From: Nitrospiria bacterium
GTDB lineage: Bacteria > Nitrospirota > Nitrospiria > SBBL01 > JAADHI01
Length of the DNA stretch: 64,000 nucleotides
Direction: 5' to 3'
NCBI GenBank assembly: GCA_046756865.1
Contig: JBHHXE010000001.1
Span: 288-64,287 of the forward strand
Below are positions 9,186 to 17,918 of the stretch, in pieces. Below the pieces are notes generated by a model. It saw only the letters and a program-made list of their open reading frames with translations. It had not been told where the DNA came from and did not search any database. The translations under genes and the position numbers were made by a program. Every line of letters starts with the position of its first letter. Position 1 is the first letter of the stretch.

Positions 9186-10367
9186 GTGAAAAATATTGTC
9201 GTACAACAAGCAGATAGGATAAAAAAACTTCCACCTTACCTCTTTGCCGAGATTGATAAAATGAAGCAGGAAGCAATCCGGGAAGGAAAAGATATTATTA
9301 ATCTGGGAGTAGGTGATCCTGATATGCCAACTCCCGCACCGATCATCGAAAAAATCAAAAAAGCGGTTGAGGATCCGAGACACCATCAATATCCCAGCTA
9401 TGACGGGATGCCCTCCTTCCGGGAAGCGGTTGCCGCTTGGTATCGGCGTCGTTTTGATGCCACGCTTGATCCGGCGAGCGAAGTCCTTTCATTGATCGGA
9501 TCCAAAGAGGGGGTTGGACACCTCCCCTTAGCCCTAATCAACCCGGGCGATACCGTCCTGATGACCTGCCCGGGGTATCCTGTATACCACTCCGGAACCT
9601 TGTTTGCGGGCGGGAATTCGGTTACGGTCCCGCTCAAGAAAGAAAATGGATTTCTCCCGGACCTGGACGCCATTCCCGATGAGGTGGCAAAAGCCGCAAA
9701 GTTGTTTTTTATAAACTACCCGAACAATCCCACAGCCGCGACTGCCGACATTGCTTTTTTTGAATCTTTAATCGACTTTGCAGACCGTAACCAGATCATT
9801 ATCTGTCATGATGCCGCCTATACAGAGATTTATTATGACGGGAAACGCCCCATTGGATTTATGGAAGTTGATGGCGCTAAAGAAGTCGGGATTGAACTCC
9901 ATTCTCTTTCAAAGACCTACAATATGACAGGTTGGCGGGTTGGGTTTGCCGTCGGAAACAGGGATGTTCTGACCGCATTGGGAAAAATCAAGAGCAATCT
10001 CGATTCCGGTATTTTTCAGGCAGTTCAGGAAGCCGGAATCGCGGCCCTTGACCTGGACGACTCCTTGCTCGATGTCATTCGAAATATATACCAGGAGCGT
10101 CGTGATACGCTCGTTCCGGGGCTTCAGAAACTTGGCTTCCAGGTGGAACGGCCTGCTGCCGCATTCTACGCGTGGATACGGACACCAAAAGGGGTATCTT
10201 CGTCAGAGATGACGGCGACGCTGCTAAAAAGGGCGGCCATTGTTTCTACACCGGGAAATGGTTTTGGAGAGGCGGGAGAAGGCTACATCCGTATGACCTT
10301 GACGGTAAGCGTTGAACGCCTTGAAGAAGCCCTTGACCGCATGGAAAATGCCGGAATTTGTGGATAA
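9186..10367 (+). CDS. dapL: Class I PLP aminotransferase, probable LL-diaminopimelate aminotransferase (DapL type)
   Basis: 393 aa from a GTG start with LPPYLFAEID...INLGVGDPDMPTP, NYPNNPT and SLSKTYNMTGWRVG (PLP Lys). It sits with dapA/dapB/dapF/lysA, and no dapD/dapE is in the cluster. The fold assignment is secure; the DapL function is inferred from context. Confidence 0.7.
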   Translation: MKNIVVQQADRIKKLPPYLFAEIDKMKQEAIREGKDIINLGVGDPDMPTPAPIIEKIKKAVEDPRHHQYPSYDGMPSFREAVAAWYRRRFDATLDPASEVLSLIGSKEGVGHLPLALINPGDTVLMTCPGYPVYHSGTLFAGGNSVTVPLKKENGFLPDLDAIPDEVAKAAKLFFINYPNNPTAATADIAFFESLIDFADRNQIIICHDAAYTEIYYDGKRPIGFMEVDGAKEVGIELHSLSKTYNMTGWRVGFAVGNRDVLTALGKIKSNLDSGIFQAVQEAGIAALDLDDSLLDVIRNIYQERRDTLVPGLQKLGFQVERPAAAFYAWIRTPKGVSSSEMTATLLKRAAIVSTPGNGFGEAGEGYIRMTLTVSVERLEEALDRMENAGICG

Positions 10368-10935
10368 AGAAAGTCTAGGTGTCGGCAAACCGTGCATTGA
10401 TCCTGCCGAACGACTACGGCATCTAGCGTATATCGGGATTGGGTCAAACAAGGGAGATGCCCTCGCCTCCTGTCGAGGGGCTGTCAGGAAACTTTCAAGG
10501 CATGAGTCCATTTGGATTAGGAATATTTCTTCCCTCTATGAGACGGCACCGATGTGCGTTCTTGATCAAGACTGGTTTTATAACGCCGTGATAGAGCTTG
10601 AAACAACCCTTTCTCCTCACGCTTTGCAGGAGACCTCTCAGGAAATCGAAAATCAGATCGGAAAAAAGATTGTGATTCCAAAAGGCCCCCGGGAGATAGA
10701 TCTTGACCTCCTTTTTTACGATCAGGAGATCATCGACGAGCCGGGTTTGACTGTTCCACATCCAGGAATCCCCGTCCGACGTTTTGTCCTGGTCCCTTTG
10801 GTCGAGATCGCTTCCGGAATGCGTCACCCAACACTCGGTCAACACGTTGACACACTACTGGAGAAACTTGGGAAAGAAAGCGATTTCGCGGTGATCAAGA
10901 AGGAAGAAAGAGGATGGGAGAGGGAAACAGCTTGA
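10348..10935 (+). CDS. folK: 2-amino-4-hydroxy-6-hydroxymethyldihydropteridine pyrophosphokinase
   Basis: HPPK pattern AYIGIGSN...LYETAP...GPREIDLDLL...VPHP...RRFVLVPL. The start is ambiguous: ATG 10312, ATG 10348 or GTG 10360. The latter two overlap the upstream stop only slightly. Confidence 0.85.
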   Translation: MPEFVDKESLGVGKPCIDPAERLRHLAYIGIGSNKGDALASCRGAVRKLSRHESIWIRNISSLYETAPMCVLDQDWFYNAVIELETTLSPHALQETSQEIENQIGKKIVIPKGPREIDLDLLFYDQEIIDEPGLTVPHPGIPVRRFVLVPLVEIASGMRHPTLGQHVDTLLEKLGKESDFAVIKKEERGWERETA

Positions 10936-11588
10936 GTGAAAATCGCCTGATAGTCATTGAAGGCCCCATCGGCGTTGGCAAAACAAGTCTGGCAAGGCTT
11001 CTCTCACGTGAATTGAATGCCGAACTTCTCCTCGAAGATGTGGAAGAGAACCCTTTTCTTCACAAATTCTACCGGGATACTCAAAAATGGGCCTTTCAGA
11101 CGCAGTTGTTTTTCCTCCTTTCCCGCTCCCGCCAATTAGAGTCGCTTATTCAGCAAAGCCTCTTTTCTGAAACCACGATAACCGATTATTTTCTTCCGAA
11201 AGATCGGATTTTTGCTTATATGAATTTAACGGAAGAAGAGCTTGTCCTCTATGAACAGGTTTATAAATTACTAAATATGACAGCGCCAAAGCCGGACTTG
11301 GTTGTATTTCTTCAGGCGAATACCGATGCCCTCTTGAAACGGATTAACCGCAGAGGGAGGAATTATGAAAAAGCCCTCCATCCGGAATACCTGGTCGGAT
11401 TGAATGAGGCCTACAACCATTTTTTCTTTTATTACGAAGAAAGTCCTTTATTGGTGATACAAACAGATGATATCGATTTTGTAAACCATCCAGAAGATTT
11501 AGCCGACCTCGTGACACGAATTAAGGAAATGAAAAAAGGAAAAGCCTACTACCACCCTAATCGCGTCATTAAAAAAGATGATCCATGA
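10914..11588 (+). CDS. Deoxynucleoside kinase family protein
   Basis: 224 aa with the P-loop IEGPIGVGKTSL and dNK-like layout (ENPFL, FQTQL, RGR lid). An alternative TTG start at 10932 overlaps the folK stop (TTGA). Confidence 0.8.
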   Translation: MGEGNSLSENRLIVIEGPIGVGKTSLARLLSRELNAELLLEDVEENPFLHKFYRDTQKWAFQTQLFFLLSRSRQLESLIQQSLFSETTITDYFLPKDRIFAYMNLTEEELVLYEQVYKLLNMTAPKPDLVVFLQANTDALLKRINRRGRNYEKALHPEYLVGLNEAYNHFFFYYEESPLLVIQTDDIDFVNHPEDLADLVTRIKEMKKGKAYYHPNRVIKKDDP

Positions 11589-12427
11589 AGACCATTAAAC
11601 GCATCAGAACCCTGCAAGAGACGCTCAGGGGTCTACGGCCCGGACGGCGGATCGCGCTTGTCCCGACGATGGGGGCTTTTCATGAAGGGCATCTTTCCCT
11701 GATGCGGAAAGCAAAGCAAAGCGGGGATTTCGTTGTTGTCTCACTCTTTGTCAATCCGCTTCAGTTTGGCCCCGAGGAAGATTTGAAAGTCTATCCCAGA
11801 GACCTTCGCTCTGACCGGAATAAGGCAAAGAAATGCGGCGTAGATCTCTTATGGACCCCCGCTCCCGAAGAAATTCTGCCCTCTCCCTATCGAACATTTA
11901 TTAATGTGGAAAAGCTCAGTAAACGATGGGAAGGTGAGGCGCGACCGGGACATTTTAAGGGAGTGGCAACCATCGTTGCCAAGCTTCTGCAGTTGATCGC
12001 GCCAGATGATCTATATCTCGGCCAAAAAGATTTTCAACAGGTTCGGGTCATCCAACAACTGGTTCGTGATCTTCACTTCAAAACCAGCGTGCACCGACTC
12101 CCAACAGTTCGGGAGGCTGATGGGCTAGCGATGAGTTCCAGAAATTCCCGTCTTTCCTCTGCAGACCGAAAAGCCGCTCCGGTCTTATACCAGACGCTTC
12201 AAGCCGCACGGAAGATGATCCGTCAGGGGGAGAGGGAGAGCCAAGAGGTCCTTGAGGCATCTGAGACCAAGATCCGGATGGAGCCTCGCGCCCGGATCAA
12301 CTATCTGGCTCTCTGCGACCCGGAGACACTAGAACCTCTTAAGTGGCTGGAACGGCGTTCCGTTTTCCTCGCGGCTATCCAGATCGGAACCGTCCGCCTG
12401 ATCGATAATGTTTTCGTTAATATCTGA
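11585..12427 (+). CDS. panC: Pantoate--beta-alanine ligase
   Basis: 280 aa with VPTMGAFHEGHLSLM (HIGH-type motif), FVNPLQFG and SSRN. The ATGA start overlaps the upstream stop. Confidence 0.95.
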   Translation: MKTIKRIRTLQETLRGLRPGRRIALVPTMGAFHEGHLSLMRKAKQSGDFVVVSLFVNPLQFGPEEDLKVYPRDLRSDRNKAKKCGVDLLWTPAPEEILPSPYRTFINVEKLSKRWEGEARPGHFKGVATIVAKLLQLIAPDDLYLGQKDFQQVRVIQQLVRDLHFKTSVHRLPTVREADGLAMSSRNSRLSSADRKAAPVLYQTLQAARKMIRQGERESQEVLEASETKIRMEPRARINYLALCDPETLEPLKWLERRSVFLAAIQIGTVRLIDNVFVNI

Positions 12428-12594
12428 CCGGATGATCTTGCGACTGATACCTCTTGCCTTTTAAAAGTAATTTCGCTTACAAGCCGCTTCTGGCTGGAAG
12501 AAACGCCTCAGATCTGTTTCCTTTATCAAATGAGTAAGAATTATTTGTAATATACCCATAGTGAGTCCAAAAATTCTGCATAATTTCCAATACC

Positions 12595-12603
12595 TGTTAT
12601 AAT
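12595..12603 (+). promoter_or_regulatory. Candidate extended -10 promoter (TGTTATAAT)
   Basis: Exact TGnTATAAT at 12595-12603 in the AT-rich 383-bp gap after panC. It predicts a ~200-nt 5' leader before the ATG at 12811. Confidence 0.35.
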
Positions 12604-12810
12604 TAAACGCGCGTAGCCAGCCTAGTTCTTACCCTCCCAGGGAGGGGTAAGCGAGAAAACAAAATAGTGGGGTTTATCTTTTCGGGTCGGAAAAACGAAG
12701 ACATTACGCCGCTAAGGGAGTGATCTTCAAAAATTACGGACGCGTTCACTTCAACCTTACCAGTGAGGTTTGCGCTGGATTTATATGGTTAAAATCAGGA
12801 GGAGGAACGG

Positions 12811-13989
12811 ATGACTTACTCCAGCATGAAATGTAAGAAATGCGGGCTTACTCAAATGGCATCATCCGCTTGTAAATCTTGTGATGCTCCATCTTCGTTT
12901 TCATCGTCCGCCTCAGGCTTATCCACGCACAAAGAGACACTTGAAGAAATTCCAAAAACAGATGCGCCTTTTGATAAGGTATCGCCCCCAGACGTTGAGC
13001 CTGAACAAAGCTTAAGGGCTTCAGAGAATCCAACCGATGACTCAGATTTAAACCATACCCTTACATTTCATGGGCAGGGTGGAACACTTTTGGGAATTCA
13101 GGCTGTCAATATTTTCCTGACACTAGTCACCTTCGGAATATATTTATTTTGGGGGAAGGTTAATGTGAGAAAATACTTAATTGGACAAACGGCATTTAAA
13201 GGAGATCGCTTCGCTTATCATGGGACGGGAATGGAATTGTTTATCGGTTCTATGAAGGCCTTCCTGGTTCTCGGGGCAATGACCGCTTTGTTTCAGGCCG
13301 CACCCTTGATGCCGGGTGGAAAAGCGGTCAGCATCCTGGCTTTCACATCGGGATATTTAGGTTTTATGCTGTTTATCCCGATTGCGGTTGTCGGGAGCCT
13401 GCGTTACCGTTTGAGCAGAACTTCATGGCGCGGTATCCGTTTATCCTTTAGAGGACCGGTCAAGGACTACGTTAAAATTTCCATTCTGGGAGGGCTTTTT
13501 AGTTTTCTGACCCTTGGGCTTTATTATCCGATATTTCACGCCAGGAAGCGCTCCTTTTTGGTTTCCAATGCTTATTTTGGGAGCCTTTCCTTCGATTTTG
13601 ACGGAGAGGGGAAGGATCTTTTTAATAGCTTTCTACTGGCGCTCCTCTTGACCATTCCCACGCTGGGTTTCTGTTGGTTCTGGTATATGGCAGAACGTCA
13701 CCGTTATTATTGGTCTCATACAAAATTGGGATCTTCAAAGTTTAAATCGACGGTGACGGGCTCCCGGCTCCTGATCTTGAGCTTAACGAACATCTTGCTC
13801 TTGATTGTTACGCTGGGCTTTGCGTGGTCCTGGACCTCTATCCGAAAAGTACAATTCAATTGTTCAAACCTGCTGCTTGAGGGACGTCTTGATATGGAAT
13901 CCATCTTTCAGGATGCGCAGTCCGCCACAGCGACCGGTGAGGGTTTGGGCAACCTCCTGGAACTTGAAACCGATTTTGGAATTGGCTGA
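12811..13989 (+). CDS. Zn-ribbon / DUF898 (YjgN-like) polytopic membrane protein
   Basis: 392 aa with a strong AGGAGGAGG SD. It has an N-terminal CxxC-x9-CxxC (12832-12882), a low-complexity linker, then two repeated membrane halves with DUF898-like signatures (FHGQGG..NIFLTLVTFGIYLFWGK; FDFDGEG..TLGFCWFWY; TLGFAWSW). Confidence 0.85.
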   Translation: MTYSSMKCKKCGLTQMASSACKSCDAPSSFSSSASGLSTHKETLEEIPKTDAPFDKVSPPDVEPEQSLRASENPTDDSDLNHTLTFHGQGGTLLGIQAVNIFLTLVTFGIYLFWGKVNVRKYLIGQTAFKGDRFAYHGTGMELFIGSMKAFLVLGAMTALFQAAPLMPGGKAVSILAFTSGYLGFMLFIPIAVVGSLRYRLSRTSWRGIRLSFRGPVKDYVKISILGGLFSFLTLGLYYPIFHARKRSFLVSNAYFGSLSFDFDGEGKDLFNSFLLALLLTIPTLGFCWFWYMAERHRYYWSHTKLGSSKFKSTVTGSRLLILSLTNILLLIVTLGFAWSWTSIRKVQFNCSNLLLEGRLDMESIFQDAQSATATGEGLGNLLELETDFGIG

Positions 13990-15094
13990 CTCGCATCTAC
14001 AACTCACGTGGGAAGGTGATTATCTGGATGGCTGGTCGGCAAATCGCCAAAGGGTAGGGGTTTACCTTGAAAAACACCGAATTAGCATAAAGACTGAGTC
14101 GGGCGAGGTTTTTTACTTGCCCTATCAGGAACTCCGGCAAACCCAGGGATTCTATGAGGGTGAACCGGTCAGATTTGAGTGGGATGGAGATACCCCTCGG
14201 GCACTGGTCATACAAGATTCAGAGTTCCTTCCTTCCCTCCACCGAAATGTCGGAAACAAGGCTTCTCACATTCATAATCCTGCTAACCGCTCTCTCCGTC
14301 TGAAACTGACGTTTGCGGCGGCAGTTTCCAGCATTGTCATTGCAGCTTCCCTTTATTTATGGGGAATTCCGACCATCGCCTCTCTTGCGACCCACTATGT
14401 ACCCGTCTCATGGGAAAAGAAACTTGGTGCCGGCGTCATGTCTTATCTTGCTCCTCCGGAAAAGCTCTGTAAAAATAAGGAATTACGTCAGTCCGTTCAG
14501 TTGATTTTCTCAGGTCTTATTCCTGTAAATTCTGATATTCCCTACAGCTTTGAGATTTCTATTATTGATTCCCGGATAGTGAATGCTTTTGCGGCACCCG
14601 GAGGTTATATCGGTCTATACCATGGCTTGATTGAGCAGACCAAGTCTCCTGAAGAGCTGGCAGGCGTGCTGGCACATGAGGTGCAGCATATTGTCAAGCG
14701 CCATTCCACACGTGCATTGCTACAGCAGGCGTCCAGCAATATTCTGATGTCTGCCCTGACTGGGGATCTGAGCGGTGCACAGGCCTTTGGCCTGGCAAGC
14801 GCCGACAACTTTTTTCGTTTAAAGAACAGCCGAGAGGCTGAACGAGAGGCTGACGAAGAAGGCATGAAGATGATTCTTGAAGCTGGGATTGATCCCGAAG
14901 GTATGATTCATTTTTTTGACCATATAAAAGAATACGAAGAGAATCTCCCGGGAATTTATAAATACCTTTCTTCTCACCCCGGAACGCGAAGCCGCGTCTC
15001 TCATCTCAATATCCTTGCGAAACATGCACCCGAAGGAAAAACAACTAAACTCATTGGAAATGATCTTTGGGATAAAATCAAGAAGTCCTGTTAG
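13982..15094 (+). CDS. Membrane-anchored M48 family zinc metalloprotease
   Basis: HEVQH at 14675-14689 plus downstream EAEREADEEG (third-ligand region). One TM helix follows a ~95-aa soluble N-domain. The ORF track starts at ATG 13805 inside the upstream gene. I prefer the in-frame TTG 13982, which overlaps the upstream stop by 8 nt; the start is uncertain. Confidence 0.8.
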   Translation: MADSHLQLTWEGDYLDGWSANRQRVGVYLEKHRISIKTESGEVFYLPYQELRQTQGFYEGEPVRFEWDGDTPRALVIQDSEFLPSLHRNVGNKASHIHNPANRSLRLKLTFAAAVSSIVIAASLYLWGIPTIASLATHYVPVSWEKKLGAGVMSYLAPPEKLCKNKELRQSVQLIFSGLIPVNSDIPYSFEISIIDSRIVNAFAAPGGYIGLYHGLIEQTKSPEELAGVLAHEVQHIVKRHSTRALLQQASSNILMSALTGDLSGAQAFGLASADNFFRLKNSREAEREADEEGMKMILEAGIDPEGMIHFFDHIKEYEENLPGIYKYLSSHPGTRSRVSHLNILAKHAPEGKTTKLIGNDLWDKIKKSC

Positions 15095-15130
15095 TTTTTT
15101 CTAGGGAGGCCGTCTGTCCAAAACCCTAAA

Positions 15131-15160
15131 TTGACTTTGGACGGAAGAACTTGGTATCAT
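15131..15160 (+). promoter_or_regulatory. Candidate sigma70 promoter of the CHAP gene (predicts leaderless mRNA)
   Basis: TTGACT (15131-15136), 18 nt spacer, TATCAT (15155-15160). The ATG at 15167 lies 7 nt after the -10 box and has no SD upstream. Confidence 0.4.
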
Positions 15161-15166
15161 TCCTAA

Positions 15167-15763
15167 ATGTGTGTCGAAATATTTACGGTAAAGAAGCGCT
15201 CCCTCGGGGTGCTTTTTCTCGTCTTTTCCATTTCATTTGCAGCCCTTGCCTGCATGATTTCTCGTGTTGAAGCCGTTCCCTGCGCCACGCCGCTCTCCTC
15301 CTATAAAGATGTGCCTGCCCGGTCTAATGAGGATTATCCTTATGGCAGCTGCGACGGCCCTTCAGTCTATGGACTGAAATACCAGTGTGTCGAATATGTC
15401 CGGCGTTTCTATCACCTGGTCAAAGGGATTGAGACGCGAGGCGGAATGCCAGGGAGGGGATGGGACGGAAATGCAAACACCTACTTTAAGTCTGCCGGAG
15501 AGATGGGCCTGGAGGCCATGGAAAATGGCGGACCAACGCCTCCTCTTCCTGATGACATCATTTCTTTCACGGGAGGTGCGCACGGCCATGTTGCCATTAT
15601 CACAGCCGTGACCAATAATCACATCGAATTCATCGAACAAAACTTCTCCCTCAGCGGGAGGGGACGCGTCGCGTATAACCCACTCACCCACCATGTAGCC
15701 GGTCGCCATGTCCAGGGCGCTACCCTCTCCGTTGAGGGGTGGCTTCGCCCCCAGGTCCATTAG
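15167..15763 (+). CDS. Secreted CHAP-domain amidase/peptidase
   Basis: 198 aa with an N-terminal signal peptide (..ISRVEA|VP), a catalytic Cys context YQCVEYVRRFY and a His context GHVAIITAV, as in CHAP / glutathionylspermidine-amidase-like domains. Confidence 0.8.
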   Translation: MCVEIFTVKKRSLGVLFLVFSISFAALACMISRVEAVPCATPLSSYKDVPARSNEDYPYGSCDGPSVYGLKYQCVEYVRRFYHLVKGIETRGGMPGRGWDGNANTYFKSAGEMGLEAMENGGPTPPLPDDIISFTGGAHGHVAIITAVTNNHIEFIEQNFSLSGRGRVAYNPLTHHVAGRHVQGATLSVEGWLRPQVH

Positions 15764-15795
15764 CATCCCAGGTGATATGATGGTTCGCTCTCGTG

Positions 15796-16317
15796 TTATG
15801 GGCGATATGCGTCCATAACACGGTTCTGTCCATCCATTGACAGAGTAACCATCCTGCCTTTGGTGATTTTATTCAATTTTGTGGCAGCATCACCCTTAAG
15901 GGCGAGGCGTTTCACAACACCAAACTCAGTCTTAATGGAAATCCATTTCATCGGACCATTGAATTCCTGGACGATTCCGGAGATTTCATTGCCCATAAAA
16001 CCTCCCTTGCCCCCGGGTTCCGTGAGGTCGATGATCGTATTTCCTCTATCCAGTATGAGGGTGACTTCATCCCCCTCTTCCGGTGCCGAAAAACCTTCCC
16101 GAACCCATTCTTTTACCCCAAAACTGCGGAAGGTCCTTTCTTCCGTTTCCAGGATGACCATATCACCTTTCACCGTCCAGACAGAACTGTAGACACTCCT
16201 ATGCGAAGAAAGGTCATGCTGGGTGAGGGTCGGGTAACTCGAAGCATACACCGACGAAAATGAAATGCTCAAAATAAACAACAAAAACATGAGAAATGGT
16301 TTATGGTTATTCATCAT
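15796..16317 (-). CDS. Secreted hypothetical protein
   Basis: 173 aa with GGAGGAG SD and a clear signal peptide (FLMFLLFILSISFSSVYA|SS). The mature part looks beta-rich and I recognise no family. Confidence 0.6.
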   Translation of the reverse strand: MMNNHKPFLMFLLFILSISFSSVYASSYPTLTQHDLSSHRSVYSSVWTVKGDMVILETEERTFRSFGVKEWVREGFSAPEEGDEVTLILDRGNTIIDLTEPGGKGGFMGNEISGIVQEFNGPMKWISIKTEFGVVKRLALKGDAATKLNKITKGRMVTLSMDGQNRVMDAYRP

Positions 16318-16716
16318 ACTCCTCCTTCCTTATATGGCGGCGGAGTATTTGCAGGCAGGGGCTTATTAAGACAGATCGTGAAGTAAGGAGAGTATTTGCC
16401 GCCAGGATGATCTTTTATATTTGACTCATTTTCCCGCTTTCTCTGATACGGGGCAACGCCGAATAGATATAAAAAATGGTTTTTTTGATCGATAACATCC
16501 ACCCCTTTTTCAGAATTGCCCTCCGCTTTTATCCATTCCTTTAAAGAGGCCGAAACCCTCCAGGGCAAATGATATTGAGAACACTTTTCACACCCATATA
16601 TATTAAATAGTATTCCATTCCTGGAAGCGAAGTCAAGAAATCAGGGCTGAACCCGATCCAGTCTCTAGGAATAAGCATTTTATTTCAAGAGCCGATCTTT
16701 TATAAATGAAAGGGGA

Positions 16717-16746
16717 TTGACGAAAGTAAATCAAGCCGGTTATCAT
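16717..16746 (+). promoter_or_regulatory. Candidate sigma70 promoter of rhodanese gene
   Basis: TTGACG (16717-16722), 18 nt spacer, TATCAT (16741-16746). Lies about 40 nt upstream of the GTG at 16788. Confidence 0.35.
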
Positions 16747-16787
16747 CAGCTTGGCAGGGAGTAAAATCAACGGCAGGGAACGTAGAC

Positions 16788-17105
16788 GTGGATCAGATTG
16801 CACCACTGGAAGTTAAACGGCAGATGGAGGGCGGGCCGACATTTACGCTGTTGGATGTTCGGGAACGCTGGGAGTTTCAAATGGCACATATCCCAGGTTC
16901 TGTCCTGATCCCTCTGGGAGAGTTGCAGAACAGAATAGAGGAACTTGACCCGGATAGAGAGATCGTTACCTTGTGTCACCATGGGATCAGGAGCCAGTCG
17001 GCCCTGAACATCCTGAAGCAATCCGGAATTAAAGATGTTAAGAATCTGAGCGGCGGAATTGATGCCTATTCTTGCCTGGCAGATCCGAGCATCCCGAGGT
17101 ATTAG
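16788..17105 (+). CDS. Single-domain rhodanese sulfurtransferase
   Basis: 105 aa from a GTG start with LLDVRE..E....HIPGS and the active-site loop CHHGIRS. Confidence 0.88.
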   Translation: MDQIAPLEVKRQMEGGPTFTLLDVRERWEFQMAHIPGSVLIPLGELQNRIEELDPDREIVTLCHHGIRSQSALNILKQSGIKDVKNLSGGIDAYSCLADPSIPRY

Positions 17106-17117
17106 CCGTCGGCGGAG

Positions 17118-17594
17118 CTATGGGTGTTCTTCGACCCACACATCTCCCTGAGGCGTTGTTTCTTTTTTCCATATGGGTGTGATTCTCTTTAGTTCATCAA
17201 TAGACCAGGAACAGCCTTTGAAGGCATCTGCCCGATGCTCCGCGCCCACAACGATCAACACAATGTTGTCTCCGATAGACAGCTTTCCCACACGATGAAT
17301 AATGGTCACTTCAATAATATCGAAATCTTTCAGCGCCTGATCGCGGATCTCTGAAAGGCGCTTTTCTGCCATGCCGGGATAGTGCTCAAAGTCAATCTTA
17401 TGAATATCCCGTCCCTTTGAAAAATCCCGGGCAGCGCCAAGGAAGGCGACGATGCCGCCGATGCGCTTAGAAGATGCCTTCAATTTATTGATCTCGTCTT
17501 CGACACTAAAGTCTTCAAGTTGAATTCTGATTCGATCTGTATTATTTTTTGTGGTGATTGTCATTCCATTCCTTTCGTGCAGGAGAATCTTCAC
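17118..17594 (-). CDS. moaE: Molybdopterin synthase catalytic subunit
   Basis: MoaE-like GGIVAFLGAARD...HYPGMAEK...HRVG.L..GD..V.V.V.A.HR..AF and PIWKKE. The start is either GTG 17594, immediately after the moaD TAG, or ATG 17564. Confidence 0.9.
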   Translation of the reverse strand: MKILLHERNGMTITTKNNTDRIRIQLEDFSVEDEINKLKASSKRIGGIVAFLGAARDFSKGRDIHKIDFEHYPGMAEKRLSEIRDQALKDFDIIEVTIIHRVGKLSIGDNIVLIVVGAEHRADAFKGCSWSIDELKRITPIWKKETTPQGDVWVEEHP

Positions 17595-17918
17595 CTACCT
17601 TGGGCGGGATCCTCCAATGCTAAGATTTTGTTGTTCTGACAGATGACATTTGGTGATCTTTGACGATGAGGCGCCTCCGGCGAAAGGAGGCAGGAAGGCA
17701 ATTTCATCACCATTTTTAATGAGGCAACTCTTTTCTGCTGCTTCCTGGTTGACAGAGATCAGGATCCTTCTTTCGCTGAGCAGGTCTTTCAACGCGGGGA
17801 GGTTTTCCTGAAGCTTCTCGATCACTTGGGCCAGGGTTGTTTCCTCCTCGACTTCCAGGGAAAGCTCTTCTTTACCAACAAGGTGTTTTAGAACTGCAAA
17901 AAAACGCACTTTAACCAC
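17595..17918 (-). CDS. moaD: Molybdopterin synthase sulfur-carrier subunit with 25-aa C-terminal extension
   Basis: The first 82 aa are a ThiS/MoaD-like ubiquitin fold ending LPPFAGG (Gly-Gly codons at 17673-17678). The ORF then continues 25 codons (ASSSKITKCHLSEQQNLSIGGSRPR) to TAG 17595-17597. Confidence 0.85.
   Translation of the reverse strand: MVKVRFFAVLKHLVGKEELSLEVEEETTLAQVIEKLQENLPALKDLLSERRILISVNQEAAEKSCLIKNGDEIAFLPPFAGGASSSKITKCHLSEQQNLSIGGSRPR

Follow-up and report, generated by a model that had tools for sequence, protein, structure and literature searches.

The window analysed here is a 64,000-nucleotide (nt) stretch of DNA from a Nitrospiria bacterium (GCA_046756865.1, contig JBHHXE010000001.1). 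This work concerns two adjacent genes on its plus strand, between positions 12,811 and 15,094. The first open reading frame (ORF1) encodes a membrane protein of the DUF898/YjgN family and the second (ORF2) a membrane-anchored M48 metalloprotease. A first-pass annotation, made from the sequence alone, had assigned the genes to these two families, had noted that they overlap and had proposed, given that DUF898 and M48 genes are neighbours in other phyla, a conserved membrane system of a protease with a substrate, adaptor or sensor. Both family assignments hold. The Pfam profile DUF898 (PF05987) matches ORF1 with 256.2 bits against a cutoff of 28 (E = 5.7e-76), and Peptidase_M48 (PF01435) matches ORF2 with 106.8 bits against a cutoff of 20.3 (E = 1.6e-30). 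A protein search returned 1795 homologues of ORF1, and the protein identical to ORF1 at NCBI is labelled 'YjgN family protein'. We show that the two genes are a real, previously unstudied two-part membrane system with a private PH-like domain in the protease and a partner fold without solved structure.

The association of the two genes was examined in both directions. In the forward survey, one genome per GTDB species was scanned with the protease alignment, which gave 80 loci, and DUF898 and M48 genes were called in these loci with hidden Markov models of both alignments on six-frame ORFs. A DUF898 gene lies immediately upstream, on the same strand, in 50 of the 55 species loci whose M48 protease carries the N-terminal domain (N-domain) of ORF2, as against 2 of the 25 loci whose M48 protease lacks it (Fisher p = 1e-14); of these two, one turned out to be a full pair with a frameshift and the other to have an N-domain that has diverged. 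In the reverse survey, metagenome contigs were scanned with the DUF898 alignment and a locus was counted if at least 300 nt followed downstream. An N-domain M48 gene stands directly downstream of DUF898 in all 65 informative loci (65/65). The pairing is near-obligate both ways and the gene order is conserved. Carriers of the pair belong to the Methylomirabilota, Nitrospirota, Chloroflexota, Binatota, Acidobacteriota, Verrucomicrobiota and Latescibacterota, and further to the Gemmatimonadota, Nitrospinota, Desulfobacterota, Armatimonadota, Bacteroidota and Alphaproteobacteria.

The genes that flank the pair vary between phyla. No third conserved gene was found, as the clusters of flanking ORFs proved to be antisense shadows of the pair or lineage-restricted synteny, and no DUF898-M48 fusion protein occurs among the homologue and N-domain matches. 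The distance matrices of the two proteins correlate with r = 0.89, which indicates that the pair is inherited as a unit. Escherichia coli yjgN sits alone between yjgM and valS without an M48 neighbour and M48 genes lacking the N-domain are mostly unpaired, so the association is limited to one DUF898 subfamily and one M48 subtype. The stated neighbourhood in other phyla is thereby borne out, well above chance, for the M48 subtype with a PH-like N-domain, and not for M48 or DUF898 proteins generally. Co-function of DUF898 and the N-domain M48 protease is close to certain. Separately, L055, which belongs to a Bryobacterales/Solibacteraceae group with loci L047 and L049, encodes an N-domain protease with no DUF898 gene in the neighbouring DNA examined. 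Loss of N-domain motifs in these three partner-less proteases was considered and set aside: their N-domains are divergent, but they come from one clade and L049 keeps DG.

The limits of ORF1 are an ATG at 12811 and a TGA at 13987-13989. In the closest relative locus, L083, the DUF898 protein opens with an identical MTYSSM(R)CKKCG behind AGGAGGA, and 12811 is therefore taken as the true start of ORF1. Both the Shine-Dalgarno sequence and the conservation of the zinc ribbon that follows support this ATG over the deposited starts. The NCBI gene model of ORF1 (377 aa) starts at Met16, so that the first CxxC is cut off (12811-12858 affected), and the JGI model of the relative's DUF898 gene (375 aa) starts later still, with the ribbon likewise truncated. 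The four ribbon cysteines (C8, C11, C21 and C24), placed correctly by the first-pass annotation, do not vary among 20 homologues, and across 115 their conservation is 90% or higher. In a profile search of PDB sequences the ribbon weakly resembles the L32/Nop10 ribbons (E about 0.2). A low-complexity linker, reaching up to 13050, joins it to the DUF898 core. Among paired members the ribbon is restricted to the Nitrospirota, Methylomirabilota, Rokubacteria and Desulfobacterota; judged by the alignments, it is a lineage-specific feature and not general to paired DUF898 proteins.

ORF2 has in-frame TTG codons at 13964, 13976 and 13982. No start codon occurs in its frame between 13982 and the conserved Trp10 (14009), the point where all homologues begin aligning. 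The protease frame of L083 is interrupted by a TAA, which restricts the start to a TTG 7 nt past the DUF898 stop; the window codon aligned to this TTG is CAT, so that TTG 13982 is the nearest possible and most economical start of ORF2. A distant, independent start is excluded by the start-codon survey, the alignment and the L083 comparison, and the overlap of the two genes, as first described, is confirmed. The two genes overlap by 8-26 nt, namely by 8 nt from TTG 13982 and by 26 nt from the NCBI start at 13964. As ORF2 overlaps ORF1 and no Shine-Dalgarno sequence is present 5' of it, the arrangement suggests coupling by termination and reinitiation, in this genome only. The overlap is not conserved among pairs, for which the estimated gaps range from -10 to +285 nt; in the 50 species loci with an adjacent DUF898 gene they extend from -10 to +255 nt.

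The AlphaFold2 (AF2) model of ORF2, built from 108 sequences, has a mean pLDDT of 86.7 and agrees with the layout first read from the sequence: an N-domain of about 95 aa, one transmembrane (TM) helix and an M48 domain with HEVQH. The N-domain consists of seven strands (residues 9-77) and a C-terminal helix (82-94) at a pLDDT of about 90-95, a predicted seven-stranded β-sandwich with a helix cap, i.e. a PH-like fold. Its Foldseek matches are PH and PTB domains, namely those of GRK2, ASAP1, Sin1 and X11, at target TM-scores of about 0.5. A profile search of the N-domain against PDB sequences gave no significant match, including to any solved PH domain, and one homologue has a weak bPH_11 match (E = 0.043). 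DUF7092 (PF23368) scores 16.4 bits on the N-domain of ORF2, below its cutoff of 24.5 (E = 0.014); full-length homologues of 45-50% identity carry PF23368, with the N-domain aligning throughout.

When the N-domain profile was searched against 1.84 billion representative proteins, only 428 clusters were found. The domain is always N-terminal in these, and the full-length or checked proteins carry M48; short matches resemble fragments, full-length proteins having 354-393 aa. On these searches, the N-domain is by sequence essentially private to this protease. A few larger variants were seen: P0357 (913 aa) continues after the PH-like and M48 domains with Sel1 and ankyrin repeats, P0039 and P0270 (551-560 aa) have an M54-like domain after M48 and end in an acidic DDLDxxxEDF tail, and P0299 has an fn3-like stretch after M48. 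No architecture of the N-domain was found beyond such C-terminal additions of Sel1 and ankyrin, fn3-like or M54-like modules.

The membrane helix of ORF2 is directly preceded by NRSLRLK and contains a conserved LYLWGIP motif. In the M48 domain behind it, all 51 paired proteases compared share H232, E233, H236, E287, D291, H332, P333 and R338 without exception. These residues have counterparts in the E. coli protease BepA, namely its zinc ligands, its HPx4R plug and the Asp and Arg that hold the plug (PMC7950410; bioRxiv 10.64898/2026.07.01.735768). The ligands of ORF2 were assigned from those of BepA, H136/H140/E201 (PMC7950410), and the active-site plug was recognized by the HPx4R motif defined in the same study (PMC7950410). 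A conserved, Gly/Ala-rich stretch of low confidence (residues ~261-283) lies at the position of the BepA lid, an element with a described role in M48 proteases (PMC7950410; bioRxiv 10.64898/2026.07.01.735768). Because catalytic residues, plug and lid are all kept, ORF2 is predicted, by analogy, to be an active but latent zinc endopeptidase.

Two cysteines of the M48 domain bear on its location. Cys163 is found in 84% and Cys370 in 90% of the 51 paired proteases, and their joint loss is the pattern expected of a disulfide, which points to a periplasmic M48 domain. The proteases of three Nitrospinota loci (L045, L046 and L050) have both cysteines gone and no cysteine at all after the membrane helix. 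ORF2 has no signal peptide. Given the basic residues before the helix, the co-lost cysteine pair and the periplasmic location of the nearest relatives, the PH-like domain would be cytoplasmic and the M48 domain periplasmic.

For ORF1, the AF2 model (115-sequence alignment) has a mean pLDDT of 86.3, with the core above 90. The two duplicated halves that had been described give way to five tandem units, as seen in both the model and BLAST repeats. Each unit pairs a β-hairpin with a helical hairpin behind it. Four of the helical hairpins are short: a hydrophobic helix of ~17 residues leads through a conserved TLGxY turn into one of ~14 residues that is aromatic and basic. The remaining unit has a long hairpin, whose helices (27 and 33 residues) meet at a turn of three residues and which is weakly conserved across phyla. 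All strongly basic loops of the DUF898 core lie between units. If every hydrophobic segment crossed the membrane, the positive-inside rule would be violated, so that the simplest reading of the secondary-structure pattern is one true TM hairpin and four half-spanning hairpins. The ribbon, every β-hairpin and the C-terminus would then be cytoplasmic, and nearly the whole DUF898 chain probably lies across the membrane from the protease active site; only a turn of 3-6 residues is predicted on the active-site side. Of the three roles first proposed for the partner, substrate is consequently the least likely. Structure comparison found no solved structure resembling the DUF898 model, and profile searches of PDB sequences gave no match for its core.

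Across phyla, the most conserved parts of the DUF898 protein are the turns, residues R198, Y199, R200, R203, R207 and R210, and Q367 and E377 of the C-terminal tail. The arginines belong to an Arg-rich motif, RYRLSRTSWRGIRxSFRG (residues 198-215, ~13402-13455). The tail, with Q367 and E377 at least 90% conserved, has a consensus of about [ST]-G-E-G-[LM]-x-x-[FL]-[LF]-D-x-x-[FL]-D-[LFI]-G; the model gives it low pLDDT values and a short helix (375-383). Leaving aside L041 and L079, which are frameshifted or match poorly, this motif ends every paired DUF898 protein with an intact 3' end, including those of the Alphaproteobacteria and Nitrospinota. The DUF898 tails of the Nitrospinota loci L045, L046 and L050 are divergent (GEExxDxxDVPIDFG).

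Several known systems resemble one or the other half of the pair. BepA (YfgC of E. coli; PDB 6ait, 6sar) shares the M48 fold (profile E = 2e-31, Foldseek E about 5e-6) and, with it, HExxH, the Glu ligand, plug-holding residues of the D205/R252 type, the HPx4R plug and, ahead of the Glu helix, a flexible lid. Unlike BepA, ORF2 lacks both TPR domain and signal peptide; in their stead it has a PH-like domain, a membrane anchor and a DUF898 partner, and nothing ties it to the β-barrel assembly machinery. Its score with the BepA equivalog NF052400 is low (103 bits against a cutoff of 570), and the match covers the protease domain only (model positions 24-261 of 483). The closest solved catalytic domain is that of Geobacter sulfurreducens Q74D82 (PDB 3c37; profile E = 9e-45, Foldseek E = 1e-9, target TM-score 0.71), a structural genomics chain of 253 aa that comprises the catalytic domain only, without a PH-like domain and without an assigned function. 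HtpX is likewise a membrane-bound M48 protease; its active site is cytoplasmic, between membrane helices, and the HtpX equivalogs of NCBIfam reach 15-24 bits on ORF2, short of their cutoffs of 245-422. Bacterial PH-like (bPH) domains share the seven-strand sandwich and helix cap predicted for the N-domain and likewise stand next to membrane helices, whereas the domain found here is fused to a protease.

On the partner side, E. coli YjgN, the founding member of DUF898, shares the repeat unit of the family (BLASTP E = 3e-14, 31% identity over ORF1 residues 81-220), its unit 1 aligning to three ORF1 units in BLASTP. It differs in being encoded by an unpaired gene, in having no Zn ribbon and in its C-terminus. 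In the HflK/C-FtsH and stomatin-NfeD (STOPP) systems, a largely monotopic membrane protein scaffolds or regulates a membrane protease, to which it is bound or alongside which it is encoded. Their logic is alike, but there is no kinship in sequence or fold and the protease classes differ.

The genomic setting was compared with that of L083. Synteny over 10300-17600 is kept there (dapA-dapB-aminotransferase-folK-dNK-panC, the pair, CHAP, rhodanese, moaE, thiS and lptF/lptG), which makes the module a stable chromosomal resident in this Nitrospiria lineage. The spacer between panC and ORF1 measures 383 nt and contains a conserved non-coding block with an extended -10 element (Table 1). The sequence ACCTGTTATAATT is identical in L083, and conservation collapses downstream of the extended -10. 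A sigma-70 scan of the intergenic region for -35/-10 pairs gave no plus-strand site and no -35 element. The leader of ORF1 is about 205 nt long, that of L083 about 100 nt shorter; a structured leader or riboswitch was ruled out, as the folding of the leader is not unusual (z = 0.11) and the whole window has no Rfam match. The first-pass annotation had given the pair its own promoter and a long leader. The promoter is supported by the extended -10 conserved in L083, whereas the leader is unstructured and its length is not conserved.

Further features surround the pair. The conserved block, possibly an operator or a regulatory region of the UP type, contains an imperfect inverted repeat (12528-12545 / 12569-12586). 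A GC-rich, near-perfect hairpin within the leader, CTTACCCTCCC A GGGAGGGGTAAG (12628-12651), has no T-run behind it and is not conserved in L083. No convincing terminator was found after ORF2. Directly downstream lies a gene for a CHAP-domain protein (15167-15763; Pfam E = 1e-12) with a hydrophobic N-terminus, preceded by a promoter-like site, TTGACT-18-TATCAT with TG (15131-15160); it is syntenic in L083 and does not accompany the pair in other phyla. On the minus strand, 15796-16317 encodes 173 aa with a signal-peptide-like N-terminus and without Pfam or NCBIfam match, and L083 has a 164-aa gene without Pfam match at this position.

Table 1. Positions in the window of the two genes, their predicted domains and motifs, and the upstream signals.
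Feature	Position	Strand	Basis
Conserved non-coding block, ~115 nt	12488..12606	+	Alignment with L083
Extended -10 promoter element TGTTATAAT	12595-12603	+	Perfectly conserved in L083
Shine-Dalgarno sequence of ORF1, AGGAGGAGG	12797..12805	+	Read from sequence
ORF1, 392 aa, DUF898/YjgN-family membrane protein	12811..13989	+	Pfam PF05987
CxxC-x9-CxxC zinc ribbon, C8/C11/C21/C24	12832..12882	+	Alignment; cytoplasmic side presumed
DUF898 core, residues 81-357, five tandem units	13051..13881	+	AF2 secondary structure, BLAST repeats, cross-phylum conservation
Long helical hairpin, helices 140-166 and 170-202, turn MPGG	13228..13416	+	AF2; putative single full membrane-spanning hairpin
C-terminal acidic-hydrophobic tail (Q367 ... 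ATGEGLGNLLELETDFGIG), proposed docking motif	13909..13986	+	Cross-phylum conservation
ORF2, 370 aa from TTG 13982, membrane-anchored M48 metalloprotease	13982..15094	+	ORF, Pfam, alignment, L083 comparison
N-terminal PH-like domain, residues 9-94 (predicted)	14006..14263	+	AF2, Foldseek; related to Pfam DUF7092
Single long helix, residues 100-139, hydrophobic 108-136	14279..14398	+	AF2; putative N-in/C-out anchor
M48 catalytic domain, residues 142-366 in the AF2 model	14405..15079	+	Alignment, AF2, structure matches
Cys163	14468-14470	+	
HEVQH (H232-E-V-Q-H236)	14675-14689	+	Sequence
E287, predicted third zinc ligand	14840-14842	+	Analogy with BepA
Plug HPGTRSR (H332-R338)	14975-14995	+	HPx4R motif
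Cys370	15089-15091	+	

We propose that the operon encodes a two-subunit inner-membrane protease whose subunits dock on the cytoplasmic side of the membrane. The complex, its topology and the direction of regulation are inferred, and the chance that this proposal is right is, in our estimate, about even. The first subunit would be a latent BepA/LoiP-type endopeptidase of the zinc-dependent M48 family, with a His-Pro-x4-Arg autoinhibitory plug and a flexible lid. Its single TM helix would hold the M48 domain at the periplasmic face of the inner membrane and leave the PH-like N-terminus in the cytoplasm. The second subunit, DUF898, would lie mainly in or on the cytoplasmic leaflet with one full TM hairpin, displaying an Arg-rich cytoplasmic face, an acidic-hydrophobic tail and, in this lineage, also a cytoplasmic Zn ribbon. 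This face or tail would be the docking site of the PH-like domain and probably of the membrane helix as well, and the role of DUF898 would be to anchor or regulate the periplasmic protease, by positioning or licensing it, and not to serve as its substrate. A complex on the cytoplasmic side or in the membrane is favoured because the features that track the pairing are the PH-like domain and the face and tail of DUF898. Short acidic-hydrophobic peptides are common ligands of PH, PTB and related domains, which makes the DUF898 tail a natural candidate. A bolder form of the proposal, in which DUF898 is an unseen, largely monotopic inner-leaflet fold whose tail and Arg face bind the PH-like domain and thereby gate plug and lid from inside, is tentative and, on balance, unlikely to hold in full.

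Several observations weigh against the docking proposal. Adjacency is broken in two Acidobacteriota loci (L035 and L043), where DUF898 lies 1.2 kb and 3.4 kb upstream, and the Bryobacterales/Solibacteraceae N-domain proteases L047 and L049 have no DUF898 gene within 3-5 kb. The absence of the tail motif outside the pairing, which speaks for the proposal, was seen in one protein, E. coli YjgN, the sole unpaired DUF898 protein compared. The PH-like domain is not singled out by the partial mirror-tree correlations between the DUF898 core and the protease, with r(core,PH|M48) = 0.25 as against r(core,M48|PH) = 0.62. Finally, the predicted single β-platform with half-spanning hairpins and the proximity of Cys163 and Cys370 that a disulfide would need are both read from the secondary-structure pattern only. 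As a means to locate the interface, the partial correlations were rejected, since all segments correlate through shared descent and do not discriminate.

In one rival reading the two proteins never meet. They may merely be co-expressed in a shared pathway, e.g. membrane or envelope homeostasis, with the N-domain binding a lipid or another ligand, as PH-like domains often do. Co-inheritance alone could explain the mirror-tree signal, and the ORF1-ORF2 interface is a proposed one only. We nevertheless consider this unlikely, as order and adjacency are kept in more than 12 phyla despite variable flanks and the N-domain occurs in no other context, both of which are typical of physically interacting subunits. 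Contact could also take the form of regulated proteolysis resembling the anti-sigma or BlaR1 systems, in which DUF898 is the substrate or anti-factor, an envelope signal triggers its cleavage and a Zn-ribbon effector is released. A cytoplasmic ribbon on a flexible linker, a latent protease under plug control and strict gene pairing would all fit such a switch. However, the ribbon is missing in most paired lineages, including the Acidobacteriota, Verrucomicrobiota, Nitrospinota and Alphaproteobacteria, no conserved sigma factor or regulator is encoded nearby, and only the short turn of DUF898 is predicted on the active-site side of the membrane, which makes regulated proteolysis a rather improbable explanation.

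The conserved motif at the extreme C-terminus of DUF898 could instead be what the protease acts on, if both soluble parts of the protease were cytoplasmic. The ORF2 helix would then be monotopic or packed into DUF898, and the M48 domain would process or bind the tail. Precedents are the NfeD/STOPP protease, which acts on stomatin, and Ste24, which acts on C-terminal motifs, and the TLGxY hairpin turn of DUF898 resembles LYLWGIP in the protease helix. This arrangement is improbable to a still greater degree: AF2 gives an unbroken helix of 40 residues with 29 of them forming a hydrophobic core, a periplasmic M48 domain is favoured both by the positive-inside rule and by the joint loss of the cysteines, the nearest relatives are periplasmic enzymes, and the variants add Sel1 and fn3-like modules that are typical of exported proteins. 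A compact two-gene module whose flanks differ between phyla might suggest a mobile cassette for defence, or one resembling a toxin-antitoxin system, that entered housekeeping DNA; this reading can be nearly dismissed. No PADLOC family matches either protein, synteny is identical in L083, the borders have no mobile-element genes or repeats, and the proteins co-diverge as expected of a stably co-inherited unit (a correlation computed without comparison to a species tree).

Full-text literature searches with DUF898, DUF7092, YjgN and M48 plus PH-domain as subjects turned up neither work on the pair or its two subfamilies nor a characterized member, in line with the first-pass statement that neither family has an assigned function. 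The only database labels for the pair are 'YjgN family protein' and 'M48 family metallopeptidase'. Two apparent exceptions were rejected. The 101-aa 'DUF898 family' protein OG1RF_10877 of Enterococcus faecalis, known from a low-biofilm transposon mutant, is a single-unit mini-protein and not comparable. The other concerns DUF989, which was presumably the former name of the Pfam family Urate_ox_N. The urate oxidase PuuD appears as a characterized DUF898 protein in PMC4562309, where its 8-TM domain is called DUF898 at one place and DUF989 at two others, very probably through a typographical error; the single mention of DUF898, in section 7, could mislead text mining.

M48 proteases, among them BepA, HtpX, Oma1 and Ste24, have a central part in the quality control of membranes and envelope, and the release of the M48 plug is only now being worked out, for BepA alone so far. 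If the docking proposal is true, nitrifiers, NC10 methanotrophs, Acidobacteriota and others would share a distinct and widespread M48 subtype that is regulated via a membrane partner and a PH-like domain. In its bolder form, the proposal would amount to an 'inside-out' control of an envelope protease and would give the DUF898/YjgN family its first function. The strict pairing makes the question directly testable and provides an entry into both M48 regulation and DUF898. For the DUF898/YjgN proteins, a large family that includes an E. coli protein and has no solved structure, the pair would offer a first functional handle.

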